A DNA stretch of 64,000 nucleotides, taken from the NCBI GenBank assembly GCA_963798145.1, contig CAWCSG010000023.1, positions 59,686 through 123,685 of the forward strand. The letters run 5' to 3'. This stretch comes from an uncultured Alphaproteobacteria bacterium (GTDB lineage: Bacteria; Pseudomonadota; Alphaproteobacteria; Geminicoccales; Geminicoccaceae). Shown piece by piece: positions 24,149 through 51,105 of this stretch (the first letter of the stretch is position 1; each line of letters begins with the position of its first letter). The notes under the pieces were generated by a model. It worked only from the letters and a program-made list of their open reading frames with translations, ran no database searches and was not told the origin of the DNA. The position numbers and the translations under genes are program-made.

Positions 24149-24170
24149 CATGGTGGCCCCAGGGTGACGG

Positions 24171-26613: not shown

Positions 26614-26630
26614 GTTCCACGATACGGAAT
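26614..26630. promoter_or_regulatory. Candidate IclR operator upstream of gcl
   Basis: GTTCC-N7-GGAAT inverted repeat, a geometry reported for IclR-type sites such as GenR. Confidence 0.5.
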
Positions 26631-26712
26631 GGTTTCCAAAACCGTTTGCCGACTTGTTTGTAGCCCGATAACCTGCGAACGTGACCAGTTAGGAACCGGG
26701 GAGGCCAGGGAC

Positions 26713-28525
<1,813 letters not shown>

Positions 28526-28528
28526 CCG

Positions 28529-29298: not shown

Positions 29299-29413
29299 GA
29301 TGCCGATCAGGGCGTGCGCCTCATGCTGAAACGGGCTCCGACCTGGGATGGATCAGGGTTCCAGCAATGATCAAGATGCGCCGCCGGAACCGCCACAGGG
29401 AGGGCTGAAGGCC

Positions 29414-30957: not shown

Positions 30958-30963
30958 GGAACG

Positions 30964-32247: not shown

Positions 32248-32256
32248 GAGTAGACG

Positions 32257-33066: not shown

Positions 33067-33070
33067 CTCG

Positions 33071-33790: not shown

Positions 33791-35267
33791 ACGTCGGCCG
33801 CAACTACATCGCGGGCGAGTGGGTGTCGGCGGCCCAGGCGTCGGCGGACATCAACCCCTCCAACACCGGCGACGTTCTGGGGCAGTACCCGCAAGCAAAC
33901 GCCGCCGACGCGGAGCGGGCGATCGCGGCCGCGCAGGACGCATTCCCGGCGTGGTCGCGCAGCACGCCACAGTTGCGTCACGACATCCTCAAGCGCATCG
34001 GCGACGAGCTGCTGGCGCGCAAGGACGAGATCGGCGCCATCCTGTCGCGCGAGGAGGGCAAGCCGCTCGTCGAGGGGATCGGCGAGACGGTGCGCGCGGC
34101 GCAGATCTTCCTGTTCTTCTCCGGCGAGGCGCTGCGGCTGACCGGTGACAAGCTGGCTTCGGTGCGCCCGGGGGTCGACATCGAGATCACGCGCGAGCCG
34201 GTGGGCGTGGTCGGGATGATCTGCCCCTGGAACTTCCCGATCGCGATCCCGGCCTGGAAGACCGCGCCCGCCCTGGCCTACGGCAACTGCGTCGTGCTCA
34301 AGCCGGCCGAGCTGGTGCCGGCGACCGCCACCGCGCTGGCCGAGATCATCGCCCGCGCCGGCGTTCCGCCCGGCGTCTTCAACCTGCTCATCGGCCGCGG
34401 CTCGGTCGTGGGCGAGGCGATGCTGCGCCATCCGGGCGTGAACGCGATCACCTTCACCGGCTCGGTCGGAACCGGGCGCCGGGTTGCGGCGACCTGCATC
34501 GCTTCCGATCCGATGAAGAAGGTGCAGCTGGAGATGGGCGGCAAGAATCCGCTCGTGGTGCTGGACGACGCGGATCTTGCGAATGCGGTCGAGACCGCCG
34601 TCAATGGCGCCTATTTCTCGACCGGCCAGCGCTGCACCGCCTCCTCGCGCCTGATCGTCACCGAGGGCATCCACGACCGCTTCATCGAGGGGGTGACCGC
34701 ACGGCTGAAGGCGCTGGTGATCGGCGACGCGCTGGCGCCGGAGACCCAGATCGGCCCTGTGGTCGACCAGACCCAGCTCGACCAGGACCTCCGCTATGTC
34801 GGCATCGGCAAGGAGGAGGGGGCCAAGTTGCCTTCGGTGGCGAGCAGCTCAAGCGGGCGACGCCCGGCTTCTACATGGCGCCGGCACTGTTCGTGGATGT
34901 CGACCCAGGCATGCGGATCTCGCGCGAGGAGATCTTCGGACCGGTCGCCGGCGTGATCCGCGCCAAGGACTATGAGGAGGCGCTGGAGCTCGCCAACGAC
35001 ACCGAGTTTGGCCTGACCGCCGGCATCTGTACCACCAGCCTGAAGCATGCGAGCCATTTCCGCCGCAACGCGGAAGCCGGGATGGTAATGGTCAACCTGC
35101 CCACCGCCGGCGTCGACTACCATGTGCCGTTCGGCGGCCGCAAAGGCTCGAGCTATGGCCCGCGCGAGCAGGGTTCGTATGCCAAGGAATTCTACACGAT
35201 CGTGAAGACCGCCTACACGTACGACTTGAACGGGCCATATGAGCCGAAGACCAAGGCACCCGGATAG
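33787..35267 (+). CDS. Aldehyde dehydrogenase (alpha-ketoglutaric semialdehyde dehydrogenase-like), -1 frameshift at about 34830
   Basis: PWNFP, FTGS, LEMGGKN, GQRCTA, EEIFGP. Restoring one G (TTG GCC) gives GAKLAFGGEQLKRATPGFYMAP and joins the two ORFs. Confidence 0.9.
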
Positions 35268-35321
35268 CCAGTACTCGACTCTAATCCGCACTTACTGCGA
35301 TCAGTCAGGGAGGAAGAGCAG

Positions 35322-35449
35322 ATGTTGAGAAGAGGCCTGCATTGGACCCGTCTGGCCGCCACCGTCGGCCTCGCCTCGGCACTGCGGCGGCCGAACGCGA
35401 GAAATGGGCTGCGGTGATCAAGGACGCTAACATCAGCATCGACGGGTGA
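35322..35449 (+). pseudogene. Internally deleted Bug/TctC gene (signal peptide joined out of frame to the last ~19 codons)
   Basis: GGGAGG RBS, MLRRGLHWTRLAATVGLASA, then in another frame [19 protein letters not shown], the typical TctC C-terminus. Confidence 0.6.
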
Positions 35450-35513
35450 GCCGGCGCGGCGCCGCCCTCCGCGGACGGCGTTGCCGGCTGGGCCTTTGCA
35501 AGGTGGGATCGAG

Positions 35514-37238
35514 ATGAGCAGGAAGAAACCGGAAGAACTGCGCAGCCATCGCTGGTACGGCGTGAAGGATTTGCGCTCGTTCGGGCACCGCTCGCGCACG
35601 GCGCAGATGGGCTATGATCGCTCGGACTATGCCGGCAAGCCGGTGATCGCGATCATCAACACCTGGTCCGACATCAACCCGTGCCACTCGCATTTCAAGC
35701 AGCGGGTCGAGGAGGTGAAGCGGGGCATCTGGCAGGCGGGCGGCTTCCCGGTCGAGCTGCCGGCGATGTCGCTGTCGGAGCCGTTCCAGAAACCGACGAC
35801 GATGATGTACCGCAACTTTCTGGCCATGGAGACCGAGGAGCTGTTGCGCTCGCACCCGGCCGACGGGGCGGTGCTGATGGGCGGCTGCGACAAGACCACG
35901 CCGGCCCTGATCATGGGCGCGATCTCGATGGACCTGCCTGCCATCTACATGCCGGGCGGGGCCATGCTGCGCGGCAATTGGGGCGGGGCCACGCTCGGCT
36001 CCGGCAGCGATACCTGGAAATACTGGGCCGAGCTGCGCAGCGGCAAGATTACCGAGGAGGACTGGGGCGAGATCGAGCAGGGCATCGCCCGCTCGCCCGG
36101 CCACTGCATGACGATGGGCACCGCCTCGACCATGACCGGTGCGGCGGAGGGCCTGGGCTTCACGTTGCCCGGCGCCTCGTCGATCCCGGCACCGGACTCG
36201 CGCCATGCCGCGATGGCGACGCTGACCGGCAAGCGCATCGTCGAGATGGTCTGGGAGGACTGGAAGCCGTCCGACTGGTTGACCCCGGCCTCGTTCGACA
36301 ACGCCGTGACCACGGTGCTGGCGCTGGGCGGCTCGACCAACGCCGTCGTGCATCTGATCGCGATGGCGCGCCGCGCGGGTGTGCCGCTCGACCTCGACCG
36401 CTTCGACGCGCTGGCGCGGCGCACGCCGCTGCTGGCGAACATCCGCCCATCGGGTGCCTTCCTGATGGAGGATTTCTACTATGCTGGGGGTCTGCGCGGG
36501 ATGCTGGCCCGGCTGGGCGAGCTGCTCTCCCTCGACGCCCGCACCGTCAACGGCAGGACGCTCGGCGAGAACGTCGCCGGCAGCAAGGTGTTCAACGACG
36601 AGGTGATCCGGCCGCTCGACCGGCCGCTGGTGGCCGGCGACAGCCTGGCCGTGCTGCGCGGCAACCTCGCGCCGAACGGTGCAGTGATCAAGCCGCCGTC
36701 GGCCGAGGCCCAGCTGCATCGGCATCGGGGCCGGGCGGTCGTGTTCAACAGCTACGACGAGATGGCGGCGCGGATCGACGATCCGAACCTCGACGTCGAC
36801 GCGAGCTCGGTGCTGGTGCTGCGCAACGCCGGTCCCCTCGGTGCCCCCGGCATGCCGGAATGGGGCCAGCTGCCGATCCCGCAGAAGCTGCTCAAGGAGG
36901 GCGTGCGCGACATGCTGCGAATCTCGGATTCGCGCATGAGCGGCACCAGCTACGGCGCCTGCGTGCTGCACGTGGCGCCAGAATCGTTCGTCGGCGGACC
37001 GTTGGCGCTGGTCGTCGAGGGCGATGTGATCGAGCTCGACATCCCGGCCCGCCGGCTCACGCTGCAGGTCGGCGATGAGGAGCTGGCCCGGCGGCGTGCC
37101 GCCTGGCGTCAACCGCCCCAGCCTTACACGCGTGGCTACGGCGCCATGTTCGCCCAGCACATCACCCAGGCGGACCAGGGTTGCGACTTCGACTATCTGG
37201 AGCGCGGCGCGCCGACGCCGGATCCCGAGATTCACTGA
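35514..37238 (+). CDS. IlvD/Edd family sugar-acid dehydratase (L-arabinonate dehydratase-like)
   Basis: [38 protein letters not shown]. Confidence 0.9.
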
Positions 37239-37261
37239 ACGACTGCCGGAGGAAAGACGCC

Positions 37262-38026
37262 ATGGATGTGCCCGCCAATCACTTCAAGCGCGCGATCAAA
37301 TCGGGGCAGTCGCAGATCGGGCTCTGGTGCAGCCTCGCCAGCAACGTCTCGGTCGAGATCGTGGCCGGCTCAGGCTTCGACTGGCTGCTGCTCGACACCG
37401 AGCATTCACCCAATGAGCTGCCGATGGTCTTCAGCCAGCTCCAGGCGGTGATGGAGAACCAGGTCCAGCCGATCGTCCGTCCGCCGTGGAACGACCACGT
37501 GATGATCAAGCGCTTCCTCGACGCGGGCGTGCAGACCCTGCTGATCCCGATGATCCAGACCGTCGCGGAGGCGGAGCAGGCGGTGGCTTCCACCCGTTAT
37601 CCACCGCGCGGCGTCCGCGGCTTCGCCTCGGCTTCGCGCTCGTCGCGGTTCGGCCGGGTCAAGGACTACCATACCCGTTGCGAAGAGGAGCTGTGCGTCC
37701 TGGTCCAGATCGAGACCAAGCTGGGATTGGACAATCTGGACGCGATCGCGCGGGTCGATGGCGTCGATGGCGTGTTCATCGGTCCGGGCGATCTGTCCGC
37801 GGGCCTGGGCTATCTCGGCGACCAGACCAACCCGGCGATGGTCCGCGTCTACGACGACGCAATCGACCGCATCAAGGCCGCCGGCCGGGCCCCGGGCTTC
37901 CTCACCGGCGACGAGGCGTTGGCGCGGCGGTGCATCGAGCGGGGCTGCCTGTTCACCGCCGTGGGCGCCGATTCCGGCATCCTGGCGCGCGGCTCGGAGC
38001 AGCTCGCGGCCAAGTTCCGACGTTGA
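37262..38026 (+). CDS. HpcH/HpaI class II pyruvate aldolase (GarL/RhmA-like)
   Basis: DTEHSPN, IVRP, LDAG, VQIET, FIGPGDLS. Confidence 0.92.
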   Translation: MDVPANHFKRAIKSGQSQIGLWCSLASNVSVEIVAGSGFDWLLLDTEHSPNELPMVFSQLQAVMENQVQPIVRPPWNDHVMIKRFLDAGVQTLLIPMIQTVAEAEQAVASTRYPPRGVRGFASASRSSRFGRVKDYHTRCEEELCVLVQIETKLGLDNLDAIARVDGVDGVFIGPGDLSAGLGYLGDQTNPAMVRVYDDAIDRIKAAGRAPGFLTGDEALARRCIERGCLFTAVGADSGILARGSEQLAAKFRR

Positions 38027-38196
38027 AGTCAACCAAGAGAGCCGGCCGGATCTGCAACAATGCGCATGGAGATCTGTAGGCGCTCGAAAGAGAGGGATAG
38101 AGCCGTAAAGCTCTCCGCCGTCGATACAACGTTCACGGTGGAATACCTGACGAGGTTGGCGAATTCGTCCAGGCCGAGCTGACCTGATGGTGCGAG

Positions 38197-39195
38197 GTGA
38201 CGAAGGACGCCAACATCGCCATCGACCGAGTGGCAGATGAGCAAGGAGTGCCACCATTGAAACCCGAAATCGTCCTGATCCAGCAGATGATGCCGAGCCT
38301 CGAGGCGGTGCTCGACCGCGACTATATCGTCCACCGCATCGATGGTCGCGCCGACATCGGCGCGCTGCCCGCGGCGGCCCGAGGGCGGATTCGCGCGATC
38401 GTCACGGGTGGCGGCACCGGCGCCGCGCCGGAACTGGTCGAGGCGTTGCCGGCGCTCGAGGTCATCACCATCAATGGCGTCGGCACGGACGCGGTCGATC
38501 TCCCACATGCGCAGGCACGCGGTGTTCGGGTCACCAACACGCCGGACGTGCTGACCGACGATGTCGCCGACATGGCCCTGGCTTTGATCCTGGCGACGCT
38601 GAGACGGATCTGCGTCGGTGACCGGCTGGTGCGCGCGGGCGAGTGGGGCACGGCGCCTATTCCGCTGGCGACCAAGTTCACCGGCAAGCGGCTCGGTATC
38701 CTGGGACTAGGCCGGATCGGCCGGGCGATTGCCAGGCGGGCGAACGGATTCGACGTCGCGATCGCCTATACGGACCAGCGCGCATTCGATGATTTGCCCT
38801 ATCGCTTCGAGCCGTCGCTGGTGGCGCTCGCCCGCGACAGTGACGTGCTGGTGGTCGCGGCCGCCGGCGGTCTCACCTCGCAGAAGCTGGTCAACCGTGA
38901 GGTTCTCAACGCGCTCGGGCCCGATGGGGTCCTCGTCAACATCGCCCGTGGGACGATCGTCGACGAAGCGGCGCTGGTCGAGGCGTTACTCGAGGGCCGC
39001 CTGGGCGGTGCCGGCCTCGACGTGTTCGAGCGCGAGCCGCACGTGCCCGAAGCGCTGTACCGTATGAAGCAGGTGGTGCTGCAGCCGCACCAGGCGAGCG
39101 CCACGGAGGAGACCCGGCAGGCAATGGCCCGGATCGTACTCGAGAATCTCGCCGCGCAATTCGCAGGAAAGCCGCTGCCGACTGCAGTTGTCTAG
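38197..39195 (+). CDS. D-2-hydroxyacid dehydrogenase (glyoxylate/hydroxypyruvate reductase-like)
   Basis: GVGTDAVD, TNTPDVLTDDVAD, GLGRIG, NIARG, DVFEREP, PHQAS; start uncertain. Confidence 0.9.
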   Translation: MTKDANIAIDRVADEQGVPPLKPEIVLIQQMMPSLEAVLDRDYIVHRIDGRADIGALPAAARGRIRAIVTGGGTGAAPELVEALPALEVITINGVGTDAVDLPHAQARGVRVTNTPDVLTDDVADMALALILATLRRICVGDRLVRAGEWGTAPIPLATKFTGKRLGILGLGRIGRAIARRANGFDVAIAYTDQRAFDDLPYRFEPSLVALARDSDVLVVAAAGGLTSQKLVNREVLNALGPDGVLVNIARGTIVDEAALVEALLEGRLGGAGLDVFEREPHVPEALYRMKQVVLQPHQASATEETRQAMARIVLENLAAQFAGKPLPTAVV

Positions 39196-39485
39196 AATGT
39201 CCGCGGAGGAGGCATCAATGTCGAGCAGCTTTGTGAAGCCGCGTGGTCGGCTGGGTCCTGATCGAGTTCAGGGAGCGAAGCTGAGATCGACGGTTGGGGT
39301 TCAATCGATCAAGTGGGGCGCTTGGGAGATGCCAAGTGCCGTGTTGAGAGCGTCCTGCAAAACTGACCCGACGTTAAGATGTTCGGCCGCGCTCGTCTTG
39401 GCAAGACTGGAGTAACCGCTGTCTTACACTGGCTACAGCAGCCATCGCGGCTTTGGAGGACTCTAGGAAAATCACTCGCAGAACA

Positions 39486-39658
39486 ATGGTGGCCGCTGCT
39501 GGTGCTGCAGCACTGCTGGCTTCGGGGATCTCACCATCTTCTTCACCAAGAGCTGGATTGCGGTGCTGATGTGGGTGTTGATCGTGGCGTCCGTCCTGGG
39601 GTCCGTGGTCATGTCCCGGCGCAAGGCCCAAATCGCTGCGGATCAGGTCGCATCTTGA
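39486..39658 (+). pseudogene. Possible 3' remnant of a TctA permease gene
   Basis: ALLASG|DLTIFFTKSWIAVLMWVLIVASVLGSVVMSRRK...* resembles the TctA C-terminus (ALLxSxGDxxIFF, one TM, basic tail); no in-frame start. Confidence 0.4.
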
Positions 39659-39883
39659 GCAACTCGCGCCGTGCCGCCGGCGTCCGGGAACATCCGCGTG
39701 CGTCGCGGTCGCATTGCCCCCCGAAGCGCATCAGCACCTTCGCCCTCGACGTGGTTGTCAGGCGGGGGTCAGGTTGACACTCTGGCGCTGCGTCGCGTAC
39801 TGCTCGCCGGTTGGCCGCCAGCTGAGCGCGTCCGCGTTGTCCGGGACAAAGCGAAGTCTTCACCAGCCAAGGGAGGGTAGCCC

Positions 39884-40672
39884 ATGCCAAAATTCGCGGC
39901 CAATCTCACCATGCTCTACAACGAGCACGATTTCCTCGACCGGTTCGCGGCGGCGGCCGCCGACGGCTTTGCCGGCGTCGAGTATCTGTTTCCCTACGCC
40001 TACCCGAAGGAAGAACTGGCGGCGCGTCTGAAGGAGCACCGGCTGGTCCAGGCATTGCACAATCTGCCAGCCGGGGACTGGGCTGCGGGCGAGCGCGGCA
40101 TCGCCTGCCTGCCGGGTCGTGAAGACGAATTTCGCGCCAGCGTTGGCCTAGGCATCGAGTACGCGACCGCGCTCGGCTGCAAGCGCGTGAACTGCCTGGC
40201 TGGCATCCCGCCCAAGGATGCTCCGGCGGCCGCAGTCCGTCACACCTTGGTCGACAATCTGCGCTATGCCGCACCGGCGTTCGAGAAGGCCGGCATCGGG
40301 CTGGTGGTCGAGGCCATCAACACGCGCGACATCCCGGGCTTCTATCTCAATCGCTCGGCGCAAACGATCGAGATCATGGACGAGGTCGGATCAGGCAATT
40401 TGTCCCTGCAATATGACTTTTATCATATGCAGATCATGGAGGGCGATCTCGTGCCGACCTTCCGCCGGATCAAGGACCGGATCGGTCACGTGCAGATCGC
40501 GGACACGCCCGGCCGCAACGAACCCGGCACCGGCGAGATCAACTATCCGTTCATCTTCGCGGCCCTGGACGAGGCCGGCTACGACGGCTGGGTCGGTTGC
40601 GAGTACAAGCCCGCCACCACCACGGCGGCTGGACTCGGCTGGTTCGCTCCCTACTGCAGAAGCGCCGCCTGA
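39884..40672 (+). CDS. hyi: Hydroxypyruvate isomerase
   Basis: MPKFAANL, VEYLFPY, EAINTRD, YDFYHMQ, QIADTPGRNEPGTGEINY, GCEY. Confidence 0.96.
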   Translation: MPKFAANLTMLYNEHDFLDRFAAAAADGFAGVEYLFPYAYPKEELAARLKEHRLVQALHNLPAGDWAAGERGIACLPGREDEFRASVGLGIEYATALGCKRVNCLAGIPPKDAPAAAVRHTLVDNLRYAAPAFEKAGIGLVVEAINTRDIPGFYLNRSAQTIEIMDEVGSGNLSLQYDFYHMQIMEGDLVPTFRRIKDRIGHVQIADTPGRNEPGTGEINYPFIFAALDEAGYDGWVGCEYKPATTTAAGLGWFAPYCRSAA

Positions 40673-40698
40673 CCGGTGGCTCAATTGGAGTTTCACGC

Positions 40699-41583
40699 AT
40701 GAAGGTCGGCTTCATCGGACTCGGCATCATGGGCCAGCCCATGGCGCTCAATCTCGCCAGGGGCGGGCACGAGCTGTTCCTGCATACGCGCAGCGGTGTG
40801 CCGCAGGCCCTGCTCGATGCTGGTGGCAACGCCTGCGAATCGGCCGAGGCCGTGGCGCGGGCGGCCGAGGTGATCATCACCATGGTCCCGGACACGCCGC
40901 AGGTGGAAGAGGTCCTGTTCGCCCCGGCCGGCATCGCCGCCGGGCTGTCGGGCGGCAAGACCGTGGTGGACATGAGCTCGATCTCGCCGATCGCCACCAA
41001 GGAGTTCGCGAAGCGGATCAACGAGCTGGGCTGCGACTATCTCGACGCCCCGGTCTCGGGCGGCGAGGTCGGTGCCAAGGCCGCGTCGCTGACCATCATG
41101 GTGGGCGGCCCGCAGGCAGCGTTCGACAAGGTCAGGCCGCTGTTCGAGCTGATGGGCAAGAACATCACGCTGATCGGCGGCAATGGCGACGGCCAGACCA
41201 CCAAGGTCGCGAACCAGATCATCGTGGCGCTCAACATCGAGGCCGTGGCCGAGGCGCTGGTGTTCGCGTCCAAGGCCGGCGCCGATCCGGCCAAGGTGCG
41301 CCAGGCACTGATGGGCGGCTTCGCCAGCTCGCGCATCCTCGAGGTGCACGGCGAGCGCATGATCAACCGGACCTTCAATCCGGGTTTCCGCATCGAGCTG
41401 CACCAGAAGGATCTGAGCCTTGCCCTCGCCGGCGCGCGGGCGCTCGGCGTCAGCCTGCCCAACACCGCTACCGCCATGGAACTGTTCAATGCCTGTGCCG
41501 CCAATGGCGGCAAGGGCTGGGACCATTCCGGCATGGTCAAGGCGCTGGAGCTGATGGCGAACCATCCGGTGGCCGAGGGCTGA
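40699..41583 (+). CDS. glxR: 2-hydroxy-3-oxopropionate (tartronate semialdehyde) reductase
   Basis: GFIGLGIMG, DAPVSGGEVGA, KVANQ, PGFRIELHQKD. Confidence 0.95.
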   Translation: MKVGFIGLGIMGQPMALNLARGGHELFLHTRSGVPQALLDAGGNACESAEAVARAAEVIITMVPDTPQVEEVLFAPAGIAAGLSGGKTVVDMSSISPIATKEFAKRINELGCDYLDAPVSGGEVGAKAASLTIMVGGPQAAFDKVRPLFELMGKNITLIGGNGDGQTTKVANQIIVALNIEAVAEALVFASKAGADPAKVRQALMGGFASSRILEVHGERMINRTFNPGFRIELHQKDLSLALAGARALGVSLPNTATAMELFNACAANGGKGWDHSGMVKALELMANHPVAEG

Positions 41584-41592
41584 GGCTCAGCG

Positions 41593-42867
41593 ATGGACCC
41601 CCGCCAGCTTCTGCTTTCCCTGTTCGAGACCGCGGTCGCGGCGGCGGACCCGGCGGTGGTGCTGCCGGCGCATCTGCCGCCACCTCCGAAAGGCCGGACC
41701 ATCGTCGTCGGCGCCGGTAAGGCGTCCGCCGCCATGGGGGTGGCACTGGAGCGGCATTGGCACGGGGAGTTGTCCGGCCTGATCGTGACCCGCTACGGCC
41801 ACGGCGCACCGTGCCGGCGGATCGAGGTGGTCGAGGCGGCGCACCCAGTGCCCGACGAAGCCGGGCGGGCGGCGGCCGCGCGGATCCTCGAGCTCGTGCA
41901 GGGGCTGGGTGAGGACGATCTGGTGCTGGCGCTGATCTCGGGCGGCGGCTCGTCGCTGCTGTCGTTGCCAGCGGACGGGCTGACCCTCGCCGACAAGCAG
42001 GCCGTCAACCGCGCGCTGCTGCGCTCGGGTGCCTCGATCGACGAGATGAACTGCGTGCGCAAGCATCTGTCCGCGATCAAGGGCGGCAGGCTCGCCGCGG
42101 CAGCGTTCCCGGCGCGTATCGTGTCCCTCCTGATCTCCGACGTTCCCGGCGATGAGCCGGCGGTGATCGCCAGCGGACCGACCGTGCCCGACCCGACCCG
42201 CGCCGCCGATGCGCTGGCCATCATCGCCCGCTACGCCATCGAGCTGCCGCCGCATGTCCGCGACCATCTGCACGGGTCCGCGGCCGAGACGCCCAAGCCC
42301 GGCGATCCGCGTCTCGCCCGCAGCGAGGTCCGGCTGATCGCGGCGCCGCAGCTCAGCCTGGAGGCGGCTGCCGCGGTCGCGCGGAGCGCCGGAGTCGCGC
42401 CGGTGCTGCTGGGCGACGCGCTCGAGGGCGAGTCCCGCGAGCTGGGCAAAGTCATGGCCGGCATCGCCCGCTCGGTCCGCCGCCACGGCCAGCCGGCCAA
42501 GTCACCGGCGGTGCTGCTGTCCGGCGGTGAGACGACGGTGACCGTGCGGGGCGAGGGCAGGGGTGGGCGCAATGTCGAATACCTGCTGGGGCTCGCCGTG
42601 GCTCTCGACGGCGAGCCCGGCATCTGGGCGATCGCTGGCGACACGGACGGGATCGACGGTGCCGAGGAGGTGGCGGGTGCGATCGTCACGCCCGACACCC
42701 TGGACCGTGCGCGGGCTGCCGGCCTCGACCCGCGCGCGGTGCTGGCCGCGAACGACGCCCACTCGCTATTCGAGGTCCTGGGCGACCAGGTCGTCACGGG
42801 TCCGACCCTAACCAACGTCAACGATTTCCGCGCTGTCCTCGTCCTGTCGCAGACGGGTGCCGCGTGA
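41593..42867 (+). CDS. ttuD: Glycerate 2-kinase (TtuD/MOFRL family)
   Basis: GAGKAS, HPVPD, SGGGSSL, KGGRLA, SGGETTV, GGRN, TDGIDG, TNVND. Confidence 0.9.
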   Translation: MDPRQLLLSLFETAVAAADPAVVLPAHLPPPPKGRTIVVGAGKASAAMGVALERHWHGELSGLIVTRYGHGAPCRRIEVVEAAHPVPDEAGRAAAARILELVQGLGEDDLVLALISGGGSSLLSLPADGLTLADKQAVNRALLRSGASIDEMNCVRKHLSAIKGGRLAAAAFPARIVSLLISDVPGDEPAVIASGPTVPDPTRAADALAIIARYAIELPPHVRDHLHGSAAETPKPGDPRLARSEVRLIAAPQLSLEAAAAVARSAGVAPVLLGDALEGESRELGKVMAGIARSVRRHGQPAKSPAVLLSGGETTVTVRGEGRGGRNVEYLLGLAVALDGEPGIWAIAGDTDGIDGAEEVAGAIVTPDTLDRARAAGLDPRAVLAANDAHSLFEVLGDQVVTGPTLTNVNDFRAVLVLSQTGAA

Positions 42868-43067: not shown

Positions 43068-43155
43068 GGAGGGATGGCCGAGTGGTTTAAGGCGCACGCC
43101 TGGAAAGCGTGTTGGGGGCAACCCCTCGCGGGTTCAAATCCCGCTCCCTCCGCCA
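43068..43155 (+). tRNA. tRNA-Ser (anticodon GGA)
   Basis: GGAGGGA/TCCCTCC acceptor stem, CACGC-CTGGAAA-GCGTG anticodon arm, long variable arm, GGTTCAAATCC T-loop, encoded CCA. Confidence 0.97.
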
Positions 43156-43710: not shown

Positions 43711-43742
43711 TATGCCAGTAAACGAGCCCTTCGCTCAAGTTT

Positions 43743-44516
43743 CTATAGCCCGAACTCGGCCCGAACAGCGGCAGCGATGAGCTGCACATGGTCGTCGATC
43801 AGCCATTGCCCCTGTTCTTCGGTAGCCCGCTCGGCGCGCGCCAGGACCCCGGACGCCGGCATGAAGCCCTTGGGCACTGGGTGGCGGTCATAGGTCGGGA
43901 ATTTGGCCGGACCGTCGCAAGGCACCTTTGACATGTCGACCAGGTCGGGCCGGAGCAGCAGCATGAGCGAGGTCTCGAGCAGGCTCGCATGCTCGAGCTC
44001 TGTGCCCGGGAATCCCTCCGGGAACAGCTTGTCCAGGGTGCTCCGGCGGACGAAGTCCCAGTACTCCAGGCGCATCAATTGCATGTCGGCGATACCGTCG
44101 CGGCGCAGCTCGCGCAGACCGAGGTCGACGCCCTCGACGGCAGGCCAGCAGTTCTCGAAGTGGCCGTTGAGCACGACGACGCGCCGGACGCCGTCGTGGC
44201 CGAGGCTGCGGATGACGTCGCGGACCACGAGCGAGAAGGTGTTGGCGTCGAGGCTGGTGGTACCGGGAAAGGCCTCACCGCCGCCCGAGCGGGGCATCGA
44301 CTTGTAACCATATGGCACCGTCGGCGCGACGAGGCCGCCGACGGTGCGCGCCACTCGCTCGCATACGGCGGTGGGCAGCACGACGTCGACGGACATCGCC
44401 ATGTGCGGCCCATGCTGCTCGGTGGCGCCGAGCGGGAAGAACACGACGACGTTCTCCGCCACCCGCCGCTCGAACTCCGGCCAGCTCAACTCTGCCAGGA
44501 ATACGCTGTCGTTCAT
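43743..44516 (-). CDS. crnA: Creatininase (creatinine amidohydrolase)
   Basis: GATEQHGPH, VDVVLPTAVC, YGYKS...SGGG...FPGTTSLD, NGHFEN, YWDF, EHA...ETS; closely follows Pseudomonas putida creatininase as I recall it. Confidence 0.88.
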   Translation of the reverse strand: MNDSVFLAELSWPEFERRVAENVVVFFPLGATEQHGPHMAMSVDVVLPTAVCERVARTVGGLVAPTVPYGYKSMPRSGGGEAFPGTTSLDANTFSLVVRDVIRSLGHDGVRRVVVLNGHFENCWPAVEGVDLGLRELRRDGIADMQLMRLEYWDFVRRSTLDKLFPEGFPGTELEHASLLETSLMLLLRPDLVDMSKVPCDGPAKFPTYDRHPVPKGFMPASGVLARAERATEEQGQWLIDDHVQLIAAAVRAEFGL

Positions 44517-44541
44517 GCCGTCCTCCCCCAGTCGCCGCCTA

Positions 44542-45285
44542 TCAGAACATTGCCGCGCCGCCGTTCGGGCTCACGCACTGGCCGGTCATGAAGGAAGCAC
44601 CAGGCCCGGCCAGGAACACTGCGGCGGCTGCGATCTCCTCCGGCCGGGCGATACGCCCCAGCGGATTCATCGCTTCCTTCGCCAGCGTCTCCGGCGAGGT
44701 GGTATCGGCCGCGAGCATGGCCGTGTCGGTCGGACCTGGGGCGATCGCGTTGACCAGGATCTCGGGCGCGAACTCGCGCGCCCAGGATCGCGTCAGCGAC
44801 AGCACGCCGCCCTTGGAGGCGCAGTAGATCGAGCAGCTCTCGCGGCCGAGATAGGCGAGCTCGGAGGCGATGTTGATCACTCGTCCGCCGCCCTGCAGCC
44901 GCATCGCCCGGATGCCCTCACGGCCGACGAGGAACACCCCACGCAGATTGACGCCGATCAGCCGGTCGAAATCGGAGGCGGTGGTCTCCAGCAGCGGCTT
45001 CTCGATCAGGATGCCGGCATTGCTGACCAAGATATCGAGGCCACCGAGCCGGGTGCCAAGCGAGGCGAACAGTTCCAGCACCTGGGCCTCATTGGCGACG
45101 TCCGTACGGATGCCGAACGAGCCGTTGCCGATCTCGCTGCTCGTGGAGTCGATCTGGTGCTGGGGCACCACGTCGGCGATCGCAACCCGACAGCCTTCCG
45201 ACGCAAGTGCCGCGGCGATCGCCCGGCCGATGCCTGCCGCACCGCCGGTGACTAGGGCACGCTTGCCCGCGAGCGAACCGGTCAC
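44542..45285 (-). CDS. SDR family oxidoreductase
   Basis: TGGAAGIG, SNAG, YCASK, NAIAPG. Confidence 0.92.
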   Translation of the reverse strand: MTGSLAGKRALVTGGAAGIGRAIAAALASEGCRVAIADVVPQHQIDSTSSEIGNGSFGIRTDVANEAQVLELFASLGTRLGGLDILVSNAGILIEKPLLETTASDFDRLIGVNLRGVFLVGREGIRAMRLQGGGRVINIASELAYLGRESCSIYCASKGGVLSLTRSWAREFAPEILVNAIAPGPTDTAMLAADTTSPETLAKEAMNPLGRIARPEEIAAAAVFLAGPGASFMTGQCVSPNGGAAMF

Positions 45286-46079
45286 CCCATCACCTCGCCG
45301 CGGTCGACATTGACCGCCTGGCCGGTGACGTTACGGGCAAGGTCTGAGGCGAGGAACAGGTAGAGCGAGGCCACGTCTTCGGGCTCCATCAGGCCGGGCA
45401 GCGCCTGTGCGGCGAGGATGTCGTCAAGCATCTCCTCCTCGCTGACGCCCGCTTTCTCGGAAACCCGGGTCAGCGAGCGCAGCGCCGCTCGGGTGCGGAC
45501 CCAGCCCGGGCAGACGGCGTTCACTCGGATGCCGCGCGGGCCGAGCTCCTTGGCCAGCACGCGCATGAAGCCGATGTTGGCGTGCTTGGACGTGACGTAA
45601 GCCGCGAAGTCCGCCGCGGCGGACTTCCCCCAGACCGAGGAGGTGATGACGATGCTGGCGCCCGCCGCCATACAGCGCAGGGCTTGGCGCGTGACGTAGT
45701 AGGTGCCGACCACGTTGATCTCGATGATCCGGCGGAAGGTCGCCTCGACCGCGTCGTCCTCGGCGAGCATGGGGGTGGTCAGCTCGAGTCCGGCATTGTT
45801 GACCAAGACGTCGAGCCGGCCAAGCCCGCCCACGACGCGGCGTACCGCTTCGCGATCGGTGATGTCGCACATCTCGGCCCGGACCGGGCGCCCGACAGCG
45901 GCGGCGATCGCCGCCGCCGCCGTCTCGATGTCGGCGGTGCTGGACAGGATGGCGAGGTCCGCACCGGCGCGCGCGAAGGCCTTCGCGACCGCGCGTCCGA
46001 TGCCGTGGCTGGCGCCGGTGACCAGGACGTTCTTACCGGCAAAACAGAGTGTCGAGCCGGCCTCAGCCTGCGGCGGCAT
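45282..46079 (-). CDS. SDR family oxidoreductase
   Basis: TGASHGIG, NNAG, YVTSK, NAVCPG. Confidence 0.92.
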   Translation of the reverse strand: MPPQAEAGSTLCFAGKNVLVTGASHGIGRAVAKAFARAGADLAILSSTADIETAAAAIAAAVGRPVRAEMCDITDREAVRRVVGGLGRLDVLVNNAGLELTTPMLAEDDAVEATFRRIIEINVVGTYYVTRQALRCMAAGASIVITSSVWGKSAAADFAAYVTSKHANIGFMRVLAKELGPRGIRVNAVCPGWVRTRAALRSLTRVSEKAGVSEEEMLDDILAAQALPGLMEPEDVASLYLFLASDLARNVTGQAVNVDRGEVMG

Positions 46080-46893
46080 ATTCGGCCTCCTCGGTGCGGA
46101 TCTCCTCCTGTCGGATGAGCGACAGAACTTCGTGGCGGATCGCGCGGAAGGCCGCCCCCTCCATCAGGTCGAGCCCGCGCTCCGCCGGCAGGACTTTGGC
46201 GACCGGCACGTCCTTGAGCACGCGGGCCGGCCGGGCGGAGAAGACGATGATCCGGTCGGCTAGGAACACGGCCTCGTCGACGTCATGGGTGACGAAGATC
46301 ACCGTCTTGCGCTCGGCTTGGCGCAGCGCCTGGAGCTGGAGCTGCAATCGTTCGCGGGTCAGCGCGTCCAGGGCACCGAACGGTTCGTCCATCAGGAGCA
46401 CCAGCGGATCGGCGGCCAGCGTGCGCGCGATCGCCACCCGCTGGCGCATGCCGCCCGAGATCCGGTTGGTGTAATAGTCGGCGAAGGGCGTCAGTCCGAC
46501 CAGCTCGAGATAGTGGCGGCCAATCCGCGCGCGATCGGCCGGCGCGAGATCGTGCCGGTACTTCATCCCGAAGCGGATGTTGCCCAGCACCGTTAGCCAC
46601 GGGAACGAGGAGTAGGTCTGGAAGACCATGCCCTTGTCCCGGCTCGGTCCCAGGACGGGCTCGCCGTCGAGGAGCACCTTGCCGGTGCTGGGCGTCTCGA
46701 GTCCGCCCACCATGCGCATCACCGTCGTCTTGCCGCATCCGGAGGGGCCGACGAAGACCACGAACTCGCCGGCCGCGATGTCCAGCGTCAGGGGCTCGAC
46801 CACCGGAATGGCCGGCCCGTGGCCGTGCGCGAAGGATTTGGTCAGAGCGCGGAACTCGATCCTGCCGCCATGGGGTACCGGGTGGGCCGTCAT
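46063..46893 (-). CDS. NitT/TauT-type ABC ATP-binding protein
   Basis: [34 protein letters not shown]. Confidence 0.93.
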   Translation of the reverse strand: MTAHPVPHGGRIEFRALTKSFAHGHGPAIPVVEPLTLDIAAGEFVVFVGPSGCGKTTVMRMVGGLETPSTGKVLLDGEPVLGPSRDKGMVFQTYSSFPWLTVLGNIRFGMKYRHDLAPADRARIGRHYLELVGLTPFADYYTNRISGGMRQRVAIARTLAADPLVLLMDEPFGALDALTRERLQLQLQALRQAERKTVIFVTHDVDEAVFLADRIIVFSARPARVLKDVPVAKVLPAERGLDLMEGAAFRAIRHEVLSLIRQEEIRTEEAEYAAAG

Positions 46894-46894
46894 C

Positions 46895-47734
46895 TCATCC
46901 AAGGTAGCGGAACCAGCGCCGATGGAGGAAGCGGATCGCCTGGTCGGAGACGAGACCGATCACGCCGATGGTGAGGATGCCGGCGAACACCTCCGGCGTC
47001 TTGCCGTAGCGGCGTGCGGTCCAGAGCTGATAGCCGATCCCCGAGTTCGCGGCGACGATCTCGGCCACGATCAGGTAGGTCCAGCACCAGCCCAGCGTGA
47101 TCCGCAAGCTGTCGACCATGTTGGGCAGCATGGCCGGGACCAGCACGTCGGTCATCAGCGCCCGGTCGCCGGCGCCGAGCGTGCGGCCAGTCTCGACGAA
47201 CTCCTTGGGCACGCGGCGGGAGTCGTCGGCCACCAGCAGCACGAGCTGGAAGAAGGTGCCGATCCAAAGGAGCGCGATCTTCGAGCTCTCGCCGATGCCG
47301 AGCCAGATCAGGGTGAGCGGTACTAGGGCCGGGACCGGCAGGTAGCGGACGAAATCGACCACGGGCTCGGTGGAGGCACCCACCGCCCGGTAGCTGCTCA
47401 TCAGGATGCCCAACGGAATGGCGATCACGGCCGAGGCCAGGAACGCCACCCAGACCCGGGCCATGCTGATGCCGATGTCGGAAAGATAGTCGGTGCCGGT
47501 GAAGAGCCCGGCCCAGGCGGCGAGGACCGCCTCGGGCGATGGCAGGATCTGCGGCTGCACCCAGCCCAGCCCGGTGACCGCGGACCAGGCGAGCAGCACC
47601 AGCGCGAACGCAGCCGCACCCACCCAGAGCTCGACGCGCGGATCCCCCCTTGTGCCGAACACGAACAAGTCGCGCCACGGTCCCGGTCGCCGTGTCCGGG
47701 AACGCGCGCGTCGCCGCATGGCCGTGAGGTCCAA
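46895..47734 (-). CDS. NitT/TauT-type ABC permease
   Basis: RYLPVPALVPL, EAA-like loop, IVAEIVAANSGIGY. Confidence 0.92.
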   Translation of the reverse strand: MDLTAMRRRARSRTRRPGPWRDLFVFGTRGDPRVELWVGAAAFALVLLAWSAVTGLGWVQPQILPSPEAVLAAWAGLFTGTDYLSDIGISMARVWVAFLASAVIAIPLGILMSSYRAVGASTEPVVDFVRYLPVPALVPLTLIWLGIGESSKIALLWIGTFFQLVLLVADDSRRVPKEFVETGRTLGAGDRALMTDVLVPAMLPNMVDSLRITLGWCWTYLIVAEIVAANSGIGYQLWTARRYGKTPEVFAGILTIGVIGLVSDQAIRFLHRRWFRYLG

Positions 47735-47752
47735 CCCTGCCGCCGTATTCTG

Positions 47753-48787
47753 CTAGTGGGCCTGGTTGATCACCGAGCGGTCGATATGGTCCTCGGGCAC
47801 CAGCTTGGTGGTGGAGGAGCCGAACTCGAGATTGAGGTCCATGGCCTCGCGGAAGACCTCGTAGACGCGGCCCTCCTTGTCTGTCGTGCCGATCAGCTCG
47901 ACCGCCTCGCTGTAGGGCGTGTAGCGGAAGTTGGGCAGGGTCGCCTTGAAGTCGTCGGGCGTAATCGAGAACTGCTTGGCGATGATCGGGATCGCCTGCT
48001 CTTGGTTGGTGTTGAAGTAGTTGACCGCCTTGTAGATCGCCCGCAGGAACTTCACGTATTTGGCAGGGTTCGTTTTCAGCTCGTCGTCATGGACGAAGAT
48101 TACGTCGAGGATCAGGTCCTCATAGTCCTTGGATGACGCCACGATGTGGGCACCGCGGTCCTGGTGCGCCGCCACGACTTGGCTGAGGACGGGCTCATAC
48201 GTGCCGACGGCGGCGACGCTGGGGTCCGAGAACACCCCAATCGCGTCGGCGGCAGCGATGTCGGTCAGCTTCGTGTCCTTGATCGACAGGTTGCAGTCCT
48301 TCTTCAGCGCCATCTGCATGATCAGGCGGGCCGGCAGGTTGGGCTCGACCGCGATGCTCTTGTCCTTGAGGTCGCACACCGACTTGATCGATCCGTCGGC
48401 CGCCCAGCCGTCGCCGCCGGTCGAGAGGTCGATCGTGCCGATGATCTTGCCCTTGGTCTCCTTGGTCCGGCCCAATCCCTGATACTCGCCGACCGTGCGC
48501 AGGTAGCAGTCGATGTCACCGCGCTCCATGGCGGCAATGCCGTTGGCCATGTCGTCGTCGAGGATCTCCTCGACCGTGATGCCCTCATCCTTGAAGTAGC
48601 CCAGCTCGTTGGCGAGGTGGACCGGGCCGAAGCCGACCCAGACCGGATACATGCAGGTGATCTTGTCGTCTTGGCCTACGGCGGCACGAGCTTCGCTTCC
48701 GGGCAGGGCGAAAAGGAATGCCGCTGCGAACAGCACGAGCGCCAGCAGGCCGGGCCGATGCGTCAACGTTCTTGTCATGCCGTGCAC
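47753..48787 (-). CDS. NMT1/SsuA-like ABC substrate-binding protein
   Basis: Signal peptide, WVGFGPVHLANELGYF, SSKDYEDLILDV. Confidence 0.88.
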   Translation of the reverse strand: MHGMTRTLTHRPGLLALVLFAAAFLFALPGSEARAAVGQDDKITCMYPVWVGFGPVHLANELGYFKDEGITVEEILDDDMANGIAAMERGDIDCYLRTVGEYQGLGRTKETKGKIIGTIDLSTGGDGWAADGSIKSVCDLKDKSIAVEPNLPARLIMQMALKKDCNLSIKDTKLTDIAAADAIGVFSDPSVAAVGTYEPVLSQVVAAHQDRGAHIVASSKDYEDLILDVIFVHDDELKTNPAKYVKFLRAIYKAVNYFNTNQEQAIPIIAKQFSITPDDFKATLPNFRYTPYSEAVELIGTTDKEGRVYEVFREAMDLNLEFGSSTTKLVPEDHIDRSVINQAH

Positions 48788-48813
48788 TCCAATTCTTGTT
48801 GCTTCGGGCCGGT

Positions 48814-49788
48814 TCAGGGCCTTTCCGCGGCGGCGTTACGAAGTCGCTCGTGGAAGATGTAGCCCAGAAAATTAAGCAAGACCTGGGCCGCGAGGATCGA
48901 CGTGATCCCCGAGGGATCGTATGGCGGCGAAACCTCGACCAGATCGATGCCGACGACGTTGCCGATACGGGCGATCCCCTGCAACAGCTCCATGACCTCC
49001 CAATAGAGGAAGCCGCCATGGCTCGGCGTACCGGTCCCCGGAGCGATCGAGGGGTCGAACGCGTCGATGTCGATGGTGACGTAGTAGCGAGCACCCTCGG
49101 GTATCAGCGCCAGCACGCCCTCGGTGCCGAGCCGCCGGCACTGGCGCACCGAGCGAATCTGCGAGCCCCGCCGGCGTGCGTCCTCGTAGCCTTCGCGCGC
49201 CGTCGAGGAGACGTTGCGGATACCCAGCTGGGTCAGCCCCGTCACGTGCGCCTGCTCGGCGGCCCGTCGCATCGGATTGCCGTGGCCCTCGCGCACACCG
49301 TGGCGCACGTCGACGAAGTCCAGATGCGCGTCGATCTGGATCAGGTGGATGGGCGGCTGGTCGGCGAAGGCGCGTACGCAGGGGATGTTAACCGCGTGAT
49401 CGCCACCCAACACGAGCGGTATGGCGCCCCGTGCCAGGATCTGGCGAACCGCGGCCTCGGTGTTGCGGTGGCTGGCCGCCGTGTCGGTGTGGACGATGTC
49501 CGCATCGCCCACGTCGGCGATCCGGACCTGGTCGGTTTCGAGATAGACCGCGTCATCCTCGTGGTCATAGGCGCCGCCGTGACCGAACGAGAACAGCGTG
49601 GACGCCTCGCGGATCGCGCGTGGGCCGAAACGTGCGCCGGCACGGTACTGGGTGCCCATGTCGTAGGGCACGCCGAGGACCGCGACGTCGGCATCAAGCG
49701 TTGACAGATCCAGGCAAGGGGGCCGCTTGCCGAAGGTGCAAAGCCCCACGAAGGGCAGATCAAGGCGTCCGCTCTCGTAGGCGTGCAT
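48814..49788 (-). CDS. Ureohydrolase (agmatinase/arginase fold)
   Basis: GARFGPRAIR, GGDH, DAHLD, HGNP, DIDAFD, GTGTP, VEVSP: all six metal ligands present. Confidence 0.92.
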   Translation of the reverse strand: MHAYESGRLDLPFVGLCTFGKRPPCLDLSTLDADVAVLGVPYDMGTQYRAGARFGPRAIREASTLFSFGHGGAYDHEDDAVYLETDQVRIADVGDADIVHTDTAASHRNTEAAVRQILARGAIPLVLGGDHAVNIPCVRAFADQPPIHLIQIDAHLDFVDVRHGVREGHGNPMRRAAEQAHVTGLTQLGIRNVSSTAREGYEDARRRGSQIRSVRQCRRLGTEGVLALIPEGARYYVTIDIDAFDPSIAPGTGTPSHGGFLYWEVMELLQGIARIGNVVGIDLVEVSPPYDPSGITSILAAQVLLNFLGYIFHERLRNAAAERP

Positions 49789-49861
49789 CAGGAGCCTCCC
49801 GCTGGCGTAGGCACCTTGGCGCTTATCGCCACGTGGAGAAAGGGGGAAGTGTGTTCGTAAC

Positions 49862-50316: not shown

Positions 50317-51105
50317 TCACTGGCTTGGCCGGGCATCGTCGAGGGCCCCGCCATCGGCTGAGGGCATGGTCATCAGCACGACCTGTGTTCGATTCGTTGC
50401 CCGCAGCTTTTTCATGATGTTTCTCACATGCACCTTGACGGTGGCCTCGCTGAGACCGCAGGCGTGCGCGATATTCTTGTTGGCCATGCCCTCTCTCAGG
50501 CACTCAAGGATCTGCTGCTGGCGCGGTGAAAACCCGCCAGTGGCCTCAGGCAGCGGTCTGGGACCGACTGCGATCGGCGGCTTGCCAACCTGGCTGAGCA
50601 GGCAGGCCACGGGTGCGTAGACGTCGCCAGCACAGATTAGCCGCACCGCCTCGACGACGACGGCCGCTTGCAGGCTGGTAGGTATGTAGCCGCGGACGCC
50701 GGATTGCAGCGCCGCCGTGACGACATCGGTGTCCTCCGCGTCGGCGAACACTGCCAACGGCACGGCGCCAAGTTGTCCAACCAGCTCGGACAATGACACA
50801 ATATTATCTGGGGAATCGGCTCTGGTAGGGCCAAGATGCTTGAGAACTAGAGCGGTACGATCATTTGACGTGGCGAACGCCACTGCCTCCTGATTGTCTC
50901 GCTCCAAACGCACCTGAAATCCAGGTAGGTGCATCGCCAGCCATCGCCCGATGCTCTCCCTGCTCAGCGCACGTGGATCGACGTAGATCACGATCGGCTG
51001 AGTCTGTTTCGGCCGCAGCCCATTTGCACGCAGCCCGGCCATAGAAAATGGTCGCGGGACGTAAGTACTCTGATCCATTTTCGCTAGTGCCATTATCCCA
51101 CCCAA
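50317..51105 (-). CDS. LuxR/NarL-type regulator with atypical receiver domain
   Basis: C-terminal FSPRQQQIL...GMANKNIA...SEATVKVHV; receiver-like N-terminus with LVLKHLG where the phosphoacceptor Asp is expected. Confidence 0.85.
   Translation of the reverse strand: MGGIMALAKMDQSTYVPRPFSMAGLRANGLRPKQTQPIVIYVDPRALSRESIGRWLAMHLPGFQVRLERDNQEAVAFATSNDRTALVLKHLGPTRADSPDNIVSLSELVGQLGAVPLAVFADAEDTDVVTAALQSGVRGYIPTSLQAAVVVEAVRLICAGDVYAPVACLLSQVGKPPIAVGPRPLPEATGGFSPRQQQILECLREGMANKNIAHACGLSEATVKVHVRNIMKKLRATNRTQVVLMTMPSADGGALDDARPSQ

Follow-up and report, generated by a model that had tools for sequence, protein, structure and literature searches.

A seven-gene operon at positions 43743-49788 (minus strand) of a 64,000-nucleotide stretch of DNA from an uncultured alphaproteobacterium of the Geminicoccaceae (contig CAWCSG010000023.1, positions 59,686 to 123,685; hereafter, the window) appears to encode the uptake of a creatinine-like cyclic acyl-guanidine and its degradation to urea. 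The predicted route employs a retuned creatininase scaffold (CrnA') and an arginase-fold ureohydrolase (U), with two short-chain dehydrogenases/reductases (SDR1 and SDR2) supplying redox steps; this reading, drawn from comparative sequence analysis, was given a probability of about 0.6. The best-supported conclusion is that the operon is discrete and horizontally shuffled, and constitutes a self-contained catabolic unit. A preliminary description of the window had proposed an undescribed pathway and, in agreement with it, no publication describing this gene set was found in a literature search. Public annotation names the cluster 'creatininase' and 'agmatinase', and both labels are probably misleading.

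Organization of the operon

The interval 43743-49788 is filled exactly by seven co-oriented open reading frames (ORFs) of the ORF list, all of which have a high third-position GC content (GC3) matching genuine genes, in a window with 67% GC. In order of transcription, and all on the minus strand, they encode U (48814-49788; 324 aa; PF00491, 273 bits), an NMT1/SsuA-type (NitT/TauT) periplasmic binding protein with a signal peptide (47753-48787; PF09084 and PF13379), an ATP-binding cassette (ABC) permease (46895-47734; PF00528, BPD_transp_1), an ABC ATPase (46063-46902; PF00005), the classical short-chain dehydrogenases SDR1 (45282-46079; 265 aa) and SDR2 (44542-45285; 247 aa), both matching PF13561 and PF00106, and the creatininase-family amidohydrolase CrnA' (43743-44516; 257 aa; PF02633, 197 bits). 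The intergenic gaps measure 26, 18 and 25 bp, and there are overlaps of 8 bp (permease/ATPase), 17 bp (ATPase/SDR1) and 4 bp (SDR1 stop/SDR2 start); since such short gaps and overlaps are typical of operons, the seven genes were regarded as one. The ORFs and the family searches reproduced the genes, order and tight packing given in the preliminary description.

A Pfam scan was performed on the large GC3-supported ORFs of the window between about 800 and 59500, excluding the last 4.5 kb (short ORFs only) and the ORFs failing the GC3 filter. Among the scanned ORFs there was no creatinase (Creatinase_N/M24), sarcosine oxidase or hydantoinase, as had been claimed earlier. Profile searches detected no arginine decarboxylase or polyamine genes inside the operon, nor were oxalate or methylamine genes found in the cluster. 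An Rfam scan of the whole window matched one tRNA and nothing else, and hence no riboswitch, and a promoter/terminator scan gave no signal exceeding shuffled expectation. In public sequencing runs, 6% of the words were recovered, in two soil metagenomes only and in no RNA run.

Conservation and mobility of the gene set

A one-genome-per-species scan with U yielded 80 loci across the Alphaproteobacteria (70-90% identity), whose neighbouring genes were identified by tblastn with the seven window proteins, and a metagenome scan with CrnA' yielded 80 loci on short contigs (48-86% identity). The full set was present in 7 of the 80 genome loci found via U, with partial versions in two more (L058 and L076). 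Seven genes in identical order were found in L008 (Geminicoccaceae), L089 and L101, and the set was accompanied by a second ureohydrolase, in a different order, in L022, L034, L047, L053, L063, L075, L102, L103, L155 and L165. The arrangement in Xanthobacter, two Ancylobacter, Flaviflagellibacter, Methylopila and a Hyphomicrobiales metagenome-assembled genome was binding protein, permease, ATPase, SDR1, SDR2, creatininase, second ureohydrolase and U. Most of the 80 metagenome loci found via CrnA' were flanked by orthologues of SDR1, SDR2, the ureohydrolase and the NMT1-type transporter, and the carriers included dozens of soil contigs. The preliminary description had counted a lack of joint conservation among the observations that would speak against its proposal; the neighbourhood comparison found the genes kept together in genome, metagenome and plasmid loci.

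When the window was compared by blastn with its closest relative, L008, the similarity (82% nucleotide identity) was confined to positions 43742-49824, which correspond to the operon borders, indicating that the seven genes move as one unit between genomic contexts. Two cultured strains carry the cluster on plasmids, namely Rhizobium sp. CIAT894 (plasmid b) and Skermanella sp. TT6 (pTT6-1), the latter (IGS68_RS28375-28405) directly after urea carboxylase, allophanate hydrolase and UAAP1/2 genes and followed by an amino-acid ABC transporter and DUF1989. Further carriers in culture are Xanthobacter sp. VTT E-85241, Ancylobacter radicis VKM B-3255, Flaviflagellibacter deserti CGMCC 1.16444 and Methylopila sp. 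Yamaguchi.

Several accessory genes recurred in the relatives, and they fit a common theme, the conversion of small nitrogen-rich compounds to urea. Genes for urea carboxylase, allophanate hydrolase and DUF1989 adjoin the cluster in L063, L118, L120, L127 and Skermanella, and a set consisting of a urea-or-guanidine carboxylase, allophanate hydrolase and DUF1989 recurs near related clusters. Isochorismatase-family (RutB/BiuH-like) hydrolases are also recurrent in related clusters. In at least nine loci (L063, L102, L103, L109, L110, L118, L120, L123 and L127) the gene of a Rieske oxygenase of some 410 aa lies between those of the creatininase homologue and the ureohydrolases; its best match, the glycine betaine N-demethylase GbcA, scored 131 bits, far under the cutoff. 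Repeatedly, the SDR gene is preceded by one for a conserved protein of some 250 aa that carries the motif GLWxRSLIAWPDGRRD and matches neither Pfam nor NCBIfam. The window has none of these accessory genes. The preliminary description had not mentioned the second ureohydrolase found in most related clusters, nor the Rieske oxygenase that is frequent in them. Reduced and altered versions were found as well: the creatininase homologue and U occur as a pair without SDRs in L097, L099, L115, L117, L124 and L128, and L076 combines U, SDR1 and SDR2 with a PuuE-like ring hydrolase that replaces the creatininase homologue.

CrnA' belongs to a creatininase clade without Trp174

CrnA' scored 351.5 bits against TIGR04448, well above the equivalog cutoff of 235, and is about 60% identical to the Pseudomonas putida creatininase (1J2T, 281 bits). 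In the alignment with the P. putida enzyme it keeps the binuclear metal ligands and catalytic residues Glu34, His36, Asp45, His120, Glu122 and His178, and also Ser78, Trp154 and Asp155; the guanidine-binding residues are likewise retained. Two substitutions were observed, Tyr to Phe at position 121 and Trp to Thr at position 174, the latter within the segment EGFPGTELEH of the window protein (EGFLGWDIEHG in wild-type 1J2T). Because Tyr121 varies in canonical forms too, residue 174 alone discriminates. Tyr121, Trp154 and Trp174 presumably form a hydrophobic lid over creatinine in the P. putida enzyme; the Protein Data Bank holds W174F and W154F/A mutants of this enzyme, indicating that residues 154 and 174 had been studied as substrate-pocket residues.

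Gene neighbourhoods were compared for 59 metagenome loci with Thr, Ile or Val at position 174, four metagenome loci and eight plasmid copies with Trp174, and 25 plasmid creatininase matches. At least one partner gene was present in 48 of the 59 Thr/Ile/Val174 loci; among the 19 flanked on either side by 1.5 kb or more, a ureohydrolase was found in 16, an SDR in 14, a transporter permease in 10 and a Rieske oxygenase in 7. None of the Trp174 forms had SDR or ureohydrolase partners (0/4 metagenome loci and 0/8 plasmids). By annotation, seven of the eight plasmid Trp174 copies adjoin an M24 creatinase, and one adjoins a cytosine deaminase. By coordinates, 16 of the 25 plasmid creatininase matches have a creatinase no more than about 2 kb away, among the creatinase matches listed. 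No creatinase was found beside a Thr/Ile/Val174 homologue in the loci collected, and the creatinase search of plasmids returned no Skermanella or Rhizobium CIAT894 match among the 60 matches listed.

In a neighbour-joining tree the Trp174 sequences, including that of P. putida, formed one clade, and the window sequence fell in a separate Thr/Ile clade; residue 174 tracked the gene neighbourhood in all the homologues collected. The preliminary description had considered the creatininase to look genuine, which agrees with the TIGR04448 score; nevertheless, judged by its clade, the loss of Trp174 and its neighbourhoods, in which it is never paired with a creatinase, CrnA' is not a canonical creatininase.

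A locus of another composition was noted on a Terrarubrum flagellatum plasmid (L170, 8998-12968), where a Trp174 creatininase adjoins cytosine deaminase, nucleoside deaminase and amidohydrolase genes and not a creatinase. This locus may combine both known entries into creatinine degradation.

The ureohydrolase U and its partner in related clusters

U carries the metal motifs GGDH, DAHLD and DIDAFDP (six metal ligands) and the catalytic His of GHGNP. It scored 182 bits against the curated agmatinase model TIGR01230 (cutoff 174) and about 203 bits against NF002564 (cutoff 302). Among solved structures it was roughly equidistant from 1WOG (202 bits), GbuA (171) and GpuA (167), and about as far from other subfamilies, structures of metformin hydrolases also being among the matches. 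Two residues after DAHxD, where the Escherichia coli agmatinase SpeB (EC 3.5.3.11) has the agmatine-pocket residue Tyr155, U has Val. Its orthologues, with 70-90% identity, constitute a highly conserved group of their own that is spread over the Alphaproteobacteria.

The second ureohydrolase, encoded by most relatives of the cluster, shares about 65% identity with the P. aeruginosa 3-guanidinopropionase GpuA (433 bits), which points to a short guanidino carboxylate as intermediate. No remnant of this GpuA-like gene was detected in the window by nucleotide comparison.

The U orthologues were found in diverse contexts. In the Roseobacter group they stand alone among housekeeping genes (guaB, recA and rsmB-like neighbours), an uninformative setting; others occur with LysR, DUF1989 and a polar amino-acid ABC transporter, and some adjoin polyamine-type ABC transporters. 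A PuuE-like ring hydrolase accompanies the orthologues in Microbaculum, L053, L054 and L076. In L012, L023 and L025 the orthologue has as its immediate neighbour a Creatinase_N/M24 protein sharing 67% identity with the creatinase found in canonical clusters. Since true creatinase homologues adjoin U orthologues in these three genomes, U is probably not simply a replacement creatinase; more likely it handles a sister substrate, guanidinoacetate being the obvious candidate. Specificity within the arginase fold cannot be assumed, because a GbuA-like enzyme was inactive on creatine, guanidinoacetate and methylguanidine (PMC9772407).

Two kinds of U-containing loci were recorded in their own right. 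In L012 (3543-4862 and 9995-12275), L023 (6225-8694) and L025 (9926-12297) the U orthologue and the Creatinase_N/M24 homologue are accompanied by a PotA-type ABC transporter, and in L012 also by a DAO-family FAD oxidase (possibly a sarcosine oxidase); these loci look like combined systems for creatine and guanidino-acid utilisation. The PotD-type binding proteins of canonical creatinine clusters were considered as possible kin of those beside U, and this was rejected since they are not orthologous. In Microbaculum sp. FT89 (L001/L002, 10001-20311) a U orthologue (84% identical) is followed by a PuuE-like hydrolase of the polysaccharide-deacetylase family, an EutA/arylmalonate-decarboxylase-family protein and a LysR regulator, and the locus also contains a creatininase-family protein that is distantly related (38% identical) and has lost Trp154, together with a Bmp-type ABC transporter and a DDAH-like protein. 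It appears to be another uncharacterised guanidino-ring cluster.

The SDR pair and the importer

The cofactor motifs and the Ser-Tyr-Lys set are intact in both dehydrogenases (TGASHGIG, NNAG and YVTSK in SDR1; TGGAAGIG and YCASK in SDR2), and an Asp after strand 2 of SDR2 suggests nicotinamide adenine dinucleotide (NAD) as its cofactor. The nearest structure to SDR1 was the P. fragi 3-hydroxybutyrate dehydrogenase (136 bits; the scores against the family models were under their cutoffs), whose carboxylate-binding residues are Gln94, His144, Lys152 and Gln196; a 3-hydroxybutyrate dehydrogenase function was rejected for SDR1, which has Glu, Trp, Phe and Ser at these positions. SDR2 matched generic solved relatives only. 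Both SDRs gave sub-threshold matches to the pyridoxal 4-dehydrogenase model (149 and 173 bits, cutoff 325) and to its structure. In the relatives, SDR1 orthologues (47-84% identical) lie next to the creatininase homologue, and SDR2 orthologues (45-79% identical) are immediately upstream of it in most cases.

These arrangements suggest that the SDRs perform feeder or tailoring steps and do not act on the final amine. The commonest gene order is transport, SDR, SDR, ring hydrolase and ureohydrolase, L076 joins the same SDR pair and U to a PuuE-like ring hydrolase, and several contigs have creatininase homologue and U pairs lacking SDRs; all three observations argue for feeder steps. The pairs lacking SDRs suggest, in addition, that the SDRs are accessory and that the hydrolase takes the ring-opening product directly.

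The importer is encoded as a complete NitT/TauT-type system, with an NMT1-like binding protein, a BPD_transp_1 permease and an ABC ATPase together. The binding protein showed weak matches to SsuA_fam and to the 'urea carboxylase-associated' model TIGR03427, all the named models being far under their cutoffs, and a sequence search of structures found no solved relative. Its orthologues in related clusters are 43-88% identical, and those of the permease 59-82%.

Proposed pathway and alternative explanations

In the proposed pathway, the NMT1-type ABC importer would take up a creatinine-like cyclic acyl-guanidine, or its reduced or hydroxylated precursor, and the two translationally coupled SDRs would carry out NAD(P)-dependent redox reactions on the ring compound, most likely ahead of ring opening. 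CrnA', a binuclear metal amidohydrolase with an altered pocket, would then open the lactam to a linear guanidino acid, which the arginase-fold hydrolase would cleave to urea and a small amino acid. The identities of the genes, the conservation of the set, the division of the creatininase family according to residue 174 and gene partners, and the association with urea-utilisation genes in relatives are observed; what the substrate is, in which order the steps follow and in which direction the SDRs work are inferred. As substrates, glycocyamidine-type rings, 5-substituted 2-iminohydantoins, six-membered rings of the dihydro-isocytosine type (leading to 3-guanidinopropionate) and creatinine itself come into consideration. 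The route is proposed to run parallel to the creatininase and creatinase route and not to copy it. Its parts all come from known families and its logic mirrors the creatinine pathway, but the literature found does not describe their combination: a creatininase of the clade without Trp174, paired SDRs, urea release by an arginase-fold enzyme and import through an NMT1-type system.

Several observations weigh against this proposal. The substrate is read from family resemblance, and CrnA' is so far above the TIGR04448 cutoff that plain creatinine is a possible substrate. For the putative lid role of Trp174, the support obtained here is the existence of the mutant structures mentioned above. The SDRs have no diagnostic similarity to characterised enzymes, and their putative upstream position in the pathway follows from gene order and from the clusters that lack them. 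The window does not have, for this cluster, the GpuA-like hydrolase, Rieske oxygenase and LysR regulator found in many relatives. Finally, the U orthologues occur mostly in unrelated contexts, so U may be a generalist.

One alternative is the use of plain creatinine, in which CrnA' would convert creatinine to creatine and U, as a non-homologous creatinase, would cleave creatine to sarcosine and urea, the SDRs being engaged in a side reaction. It would account for the family score, the identity to the P. putida enzyme and the complete catalytic residues of CrnA', for the lack of a creatinase in the scanned window ORFs and in related clusters, for the two-gene pairs of creatininase homologue and U, and for the urea-utilisation genes near the cluster in relatives; moreover, metformin hydrolases are arginase-fold enzymes able to release N,N-disubstituted amines. 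It leaves the strictly conserved SDR pair without explanation, however, and in related taxa it is the Trp174 creatininase that pairs with the M24 creatinase, never the Thr/Ile/Val174 clade. U would also be redundant beside the creatinase homologues of L012, L023 and L025, related clusters usually carry a GpuA-like enzyme, which acts on monosubstituted guanidino acids, and the inactivity of the GbuA-like enzyme on creatine and guanidinoacetate (PMC9772407) points the same way. Use of plain creatinine was considered unlikely. The non-homologous creatinase was one of two alternatives offered in the preliminary description, and it is weakened by the same creatinase-adjoining orthologues and GpuA-like partner; the other, a related or oxidised cyclic guanidine whose hydroxy or keto carbon is handled by the SDRs, fits better, although direct support for its creatol and creatone specifics was not obtained. 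In that specific form the SDRs would convert creatol (5-hydroxycreatinine), whichever its enantiomer, to creatone, whose dione ring CrnA' would open, and the ureohydrolase would cleave the product or the methylguanidine derived from it. Two adjacent SDRs could indeed serve both enantiomers of a racemic hydroxy compound, the altered CrnA' pocket could fit an extra ring oxygen, many relatives have two different ureohydrolases and a Rieske oxygenase that might hydroxylate the ring, and a route from creatinine through methylguanidine to urea is listed in a review (PMC12623156). Creatol, however, arises rarely, by abiotic or mammalian oxidation, and would hardly account for a cluster so widespread in soil bacteria; the Rieske protein is nearest to the N-demethylating GbcA and not to ring hydroxylases; enzymes of the GpuA/GbuA type require a carboxylate, and the one tested left methylguanidine uncleaved (PMC9772407); and the oxalate and methylamine genes looked for were not in the cluster. 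The oxidised-creatinine route thus appears improbable.

An ordinary agmatinase standing beside unrelated transport and redox genes, with no common pathway, would agree with the public annotation, with the score of U just over the TIGR01230 cutoff, and with the lack of a creatininase at most U orthologues, some of them beside polyamine-type ABC transporters. Such transporters accompany canonical creatininase-creatinase clusters as well, and U is well under the NF002564 cutoff and has Val at the Tyr155 position. The closest solved 'agmatinase', 1WOG of D. radiodurans, has never been kinetically characterised (PMC8125230). Conservation of the set across families and gene orders, with similarity ending at the operon borders, makes this explanation highly improbable and practically rules out that an ordinary agmatinase lies here by chance.

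We put at slightly below even the chance that the operon represents an undescribed and widespread pathway whose substrate is a naturally occurring cyclic guanidine and not creatinine. This could be a six-membered ring of the dihydro-isocytosine type, opened to 3-guanidinopropionate, or a 2-iminohydantoin substituted at position 5, for instance one formed by guanine oxidation. In that case, SDR-type cyclic-guanidine dehydrogenases would be a new activity, the Thr/Ile/Val174 'creatininase' would have a new ring specificity, and the conserved alphaproteobacterial ureohydrolase would be a guanidinoacetate-type hydrolase, an activity to which no gene is known to be firmly assigned. Guanidino compounds (creatinine, phosphagens, guanidine and metformin residues) form a large pool of organic nitrogen for which new enzymes are still emerging, and the module is common in soil Alphaproteobacteria. 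Solving its function would correct thousands of annotations, would assign a role to the U group, which is also present in marine Roseobacter-group and Puniceispirillum (SAR116-type) genomes, would reveal how a single lid residue retunes a creatininase scaffold, and might possibly yield enzymes for creatinine or guanidine biosensing. The compact seven-gene operon and its cultured carriers make the question directly testable.

Comparison with known systems

The canonical pathway, known from P. putida and from plasmids of Paracoccus, Mesorhizobium and Shinella, consists of CrnA (EC 3.5.2.10) and CreA (M24 pita-bread fold, EC 3.5.3.3), and the canonical clusters collected here matched the published arrangement, with the creatininase divergent from the regulator and the creatinase. 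As proposed for the operon, a cyclic acyl-guanidine is opened by a homologous enzyme and urea is then released from the linear guanidino acid, and the neighbouring genes encode a dedicated importer and a regulator of the LysR or another type. In contrast with the canonical pathway, the operon has no M24 creatinase, urea release being assigned to arginase-fold enzymes; its ring-opening enzyme has Thr instead of Trp174 and belongs to a separate clade; its two SDRs have no counterpart; and its importer is NMT1-type, whereas canonical clusters have PotD-type systems or a cytosine permease.

The P. aeruginosa enzymes GpuA (3-guanidinopropionase, 3NIP) and GbuA (guanidinobutyrase, 3NIO), which are LysR-controlled and release urea from short guanidino acids, share the arginase fold and metal motifs with U, although U is distantly related to them (167-171 bits) and has its own orthologue group. 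In P. aeruginosa, gpuA and gbuA are not known to be linked to a creatininase or to SDRs. In vitamin B6 degradation an SDR, pyridoxal 4-dehydrogenase, oxidises a cyclic hemiacetal to a lactone that is then opened by a metallo-hydrolase, 4-pyridoxolactonase. This is a possible mechanistic analogy only: the operon ring would be a guanidine lactam, its hydrolase is of a different family, and no evidence ties the operon to vitamin B6. The hydantoin and allantoin routes (PuuE allantoinase; hydantoinase and carbamoylase) likewise use a ring amidohydrolase followed by release of a one-carbon nitrogen unit; they release carbamate or ammonia, or proceed through allantoicase, whereas the arginase-fold amidinohydrolase of the operon would free urea from a guanidino group.

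Genomic surroundings and other genes of the window

A LuxR/GerE-type regulator gene (50317-51105, minus strand; PF00196) lies upstream of the operon, on the same strand and within a stretch of lower GC. No homologue of it was found beside any related cluster, the relatives carrying a divergent LysR instead; it is a possible local regulator outside the conserved module. On the 3' side, about 590 bp past the last gene of the operon, a tRNA-Ser(GGA) gene was identified (43068-43155, plus strand; Rfam tRNA, 62 bits; ARAGORN), marking the border where similarity to the relatives ends. On the opposite side GC falls to 0.60, and the operon may belong to a small island acquired beside the tRNA gene. 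Both flanks are unrelated to the operon, with convergent glyoxylate/glycerate and sugar-acid genes on the low-coordinate side and lower-GC aminosugar genes on the other.

The convergent region (29348-42867, plus strand) encodes a TRAP transporter, an aldehyde dehydrogenase, an IlvD/Edd dehydratase, an HpcH aldolase, a 2-hydroxyacid dehydrogenase, a Hyi-like isomerase, a GlxR-like reductase and a glycerate 2-kinase. Glyoxylate-to-glycerate genes of this kind often accompany ureide catabolism; their adjacency to the operon is not kept in L008. A purine-catabolism set occupies 2320-7504 and 8370-13058 (both plus strand) and 17335-19579, and comprises a xanthine/uracil permease, two xanthine dehydrogenase subunits, a Bmp-type nucleoside ABC transporter, a LysR regulator and a membrane urate oxidase (Urate_ox_N, PuuD-like). 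The ORF at 26629-28539 (plus strand), assigned to a thiamine-diphosphate enzyme, gave only a partial match, to a C-terminal TPP domain, and a separate GC3-supported ORF was found in another frame at 27926-28525, which may reflect a frameshift or a sequencing error. A signalling protein of 1105 aa, with PAS, GGDEF and EAL domains and an N-terminal ethylene-receptor-type domain (ETR1_N), is encoded at 20896-24213 (minus strand).

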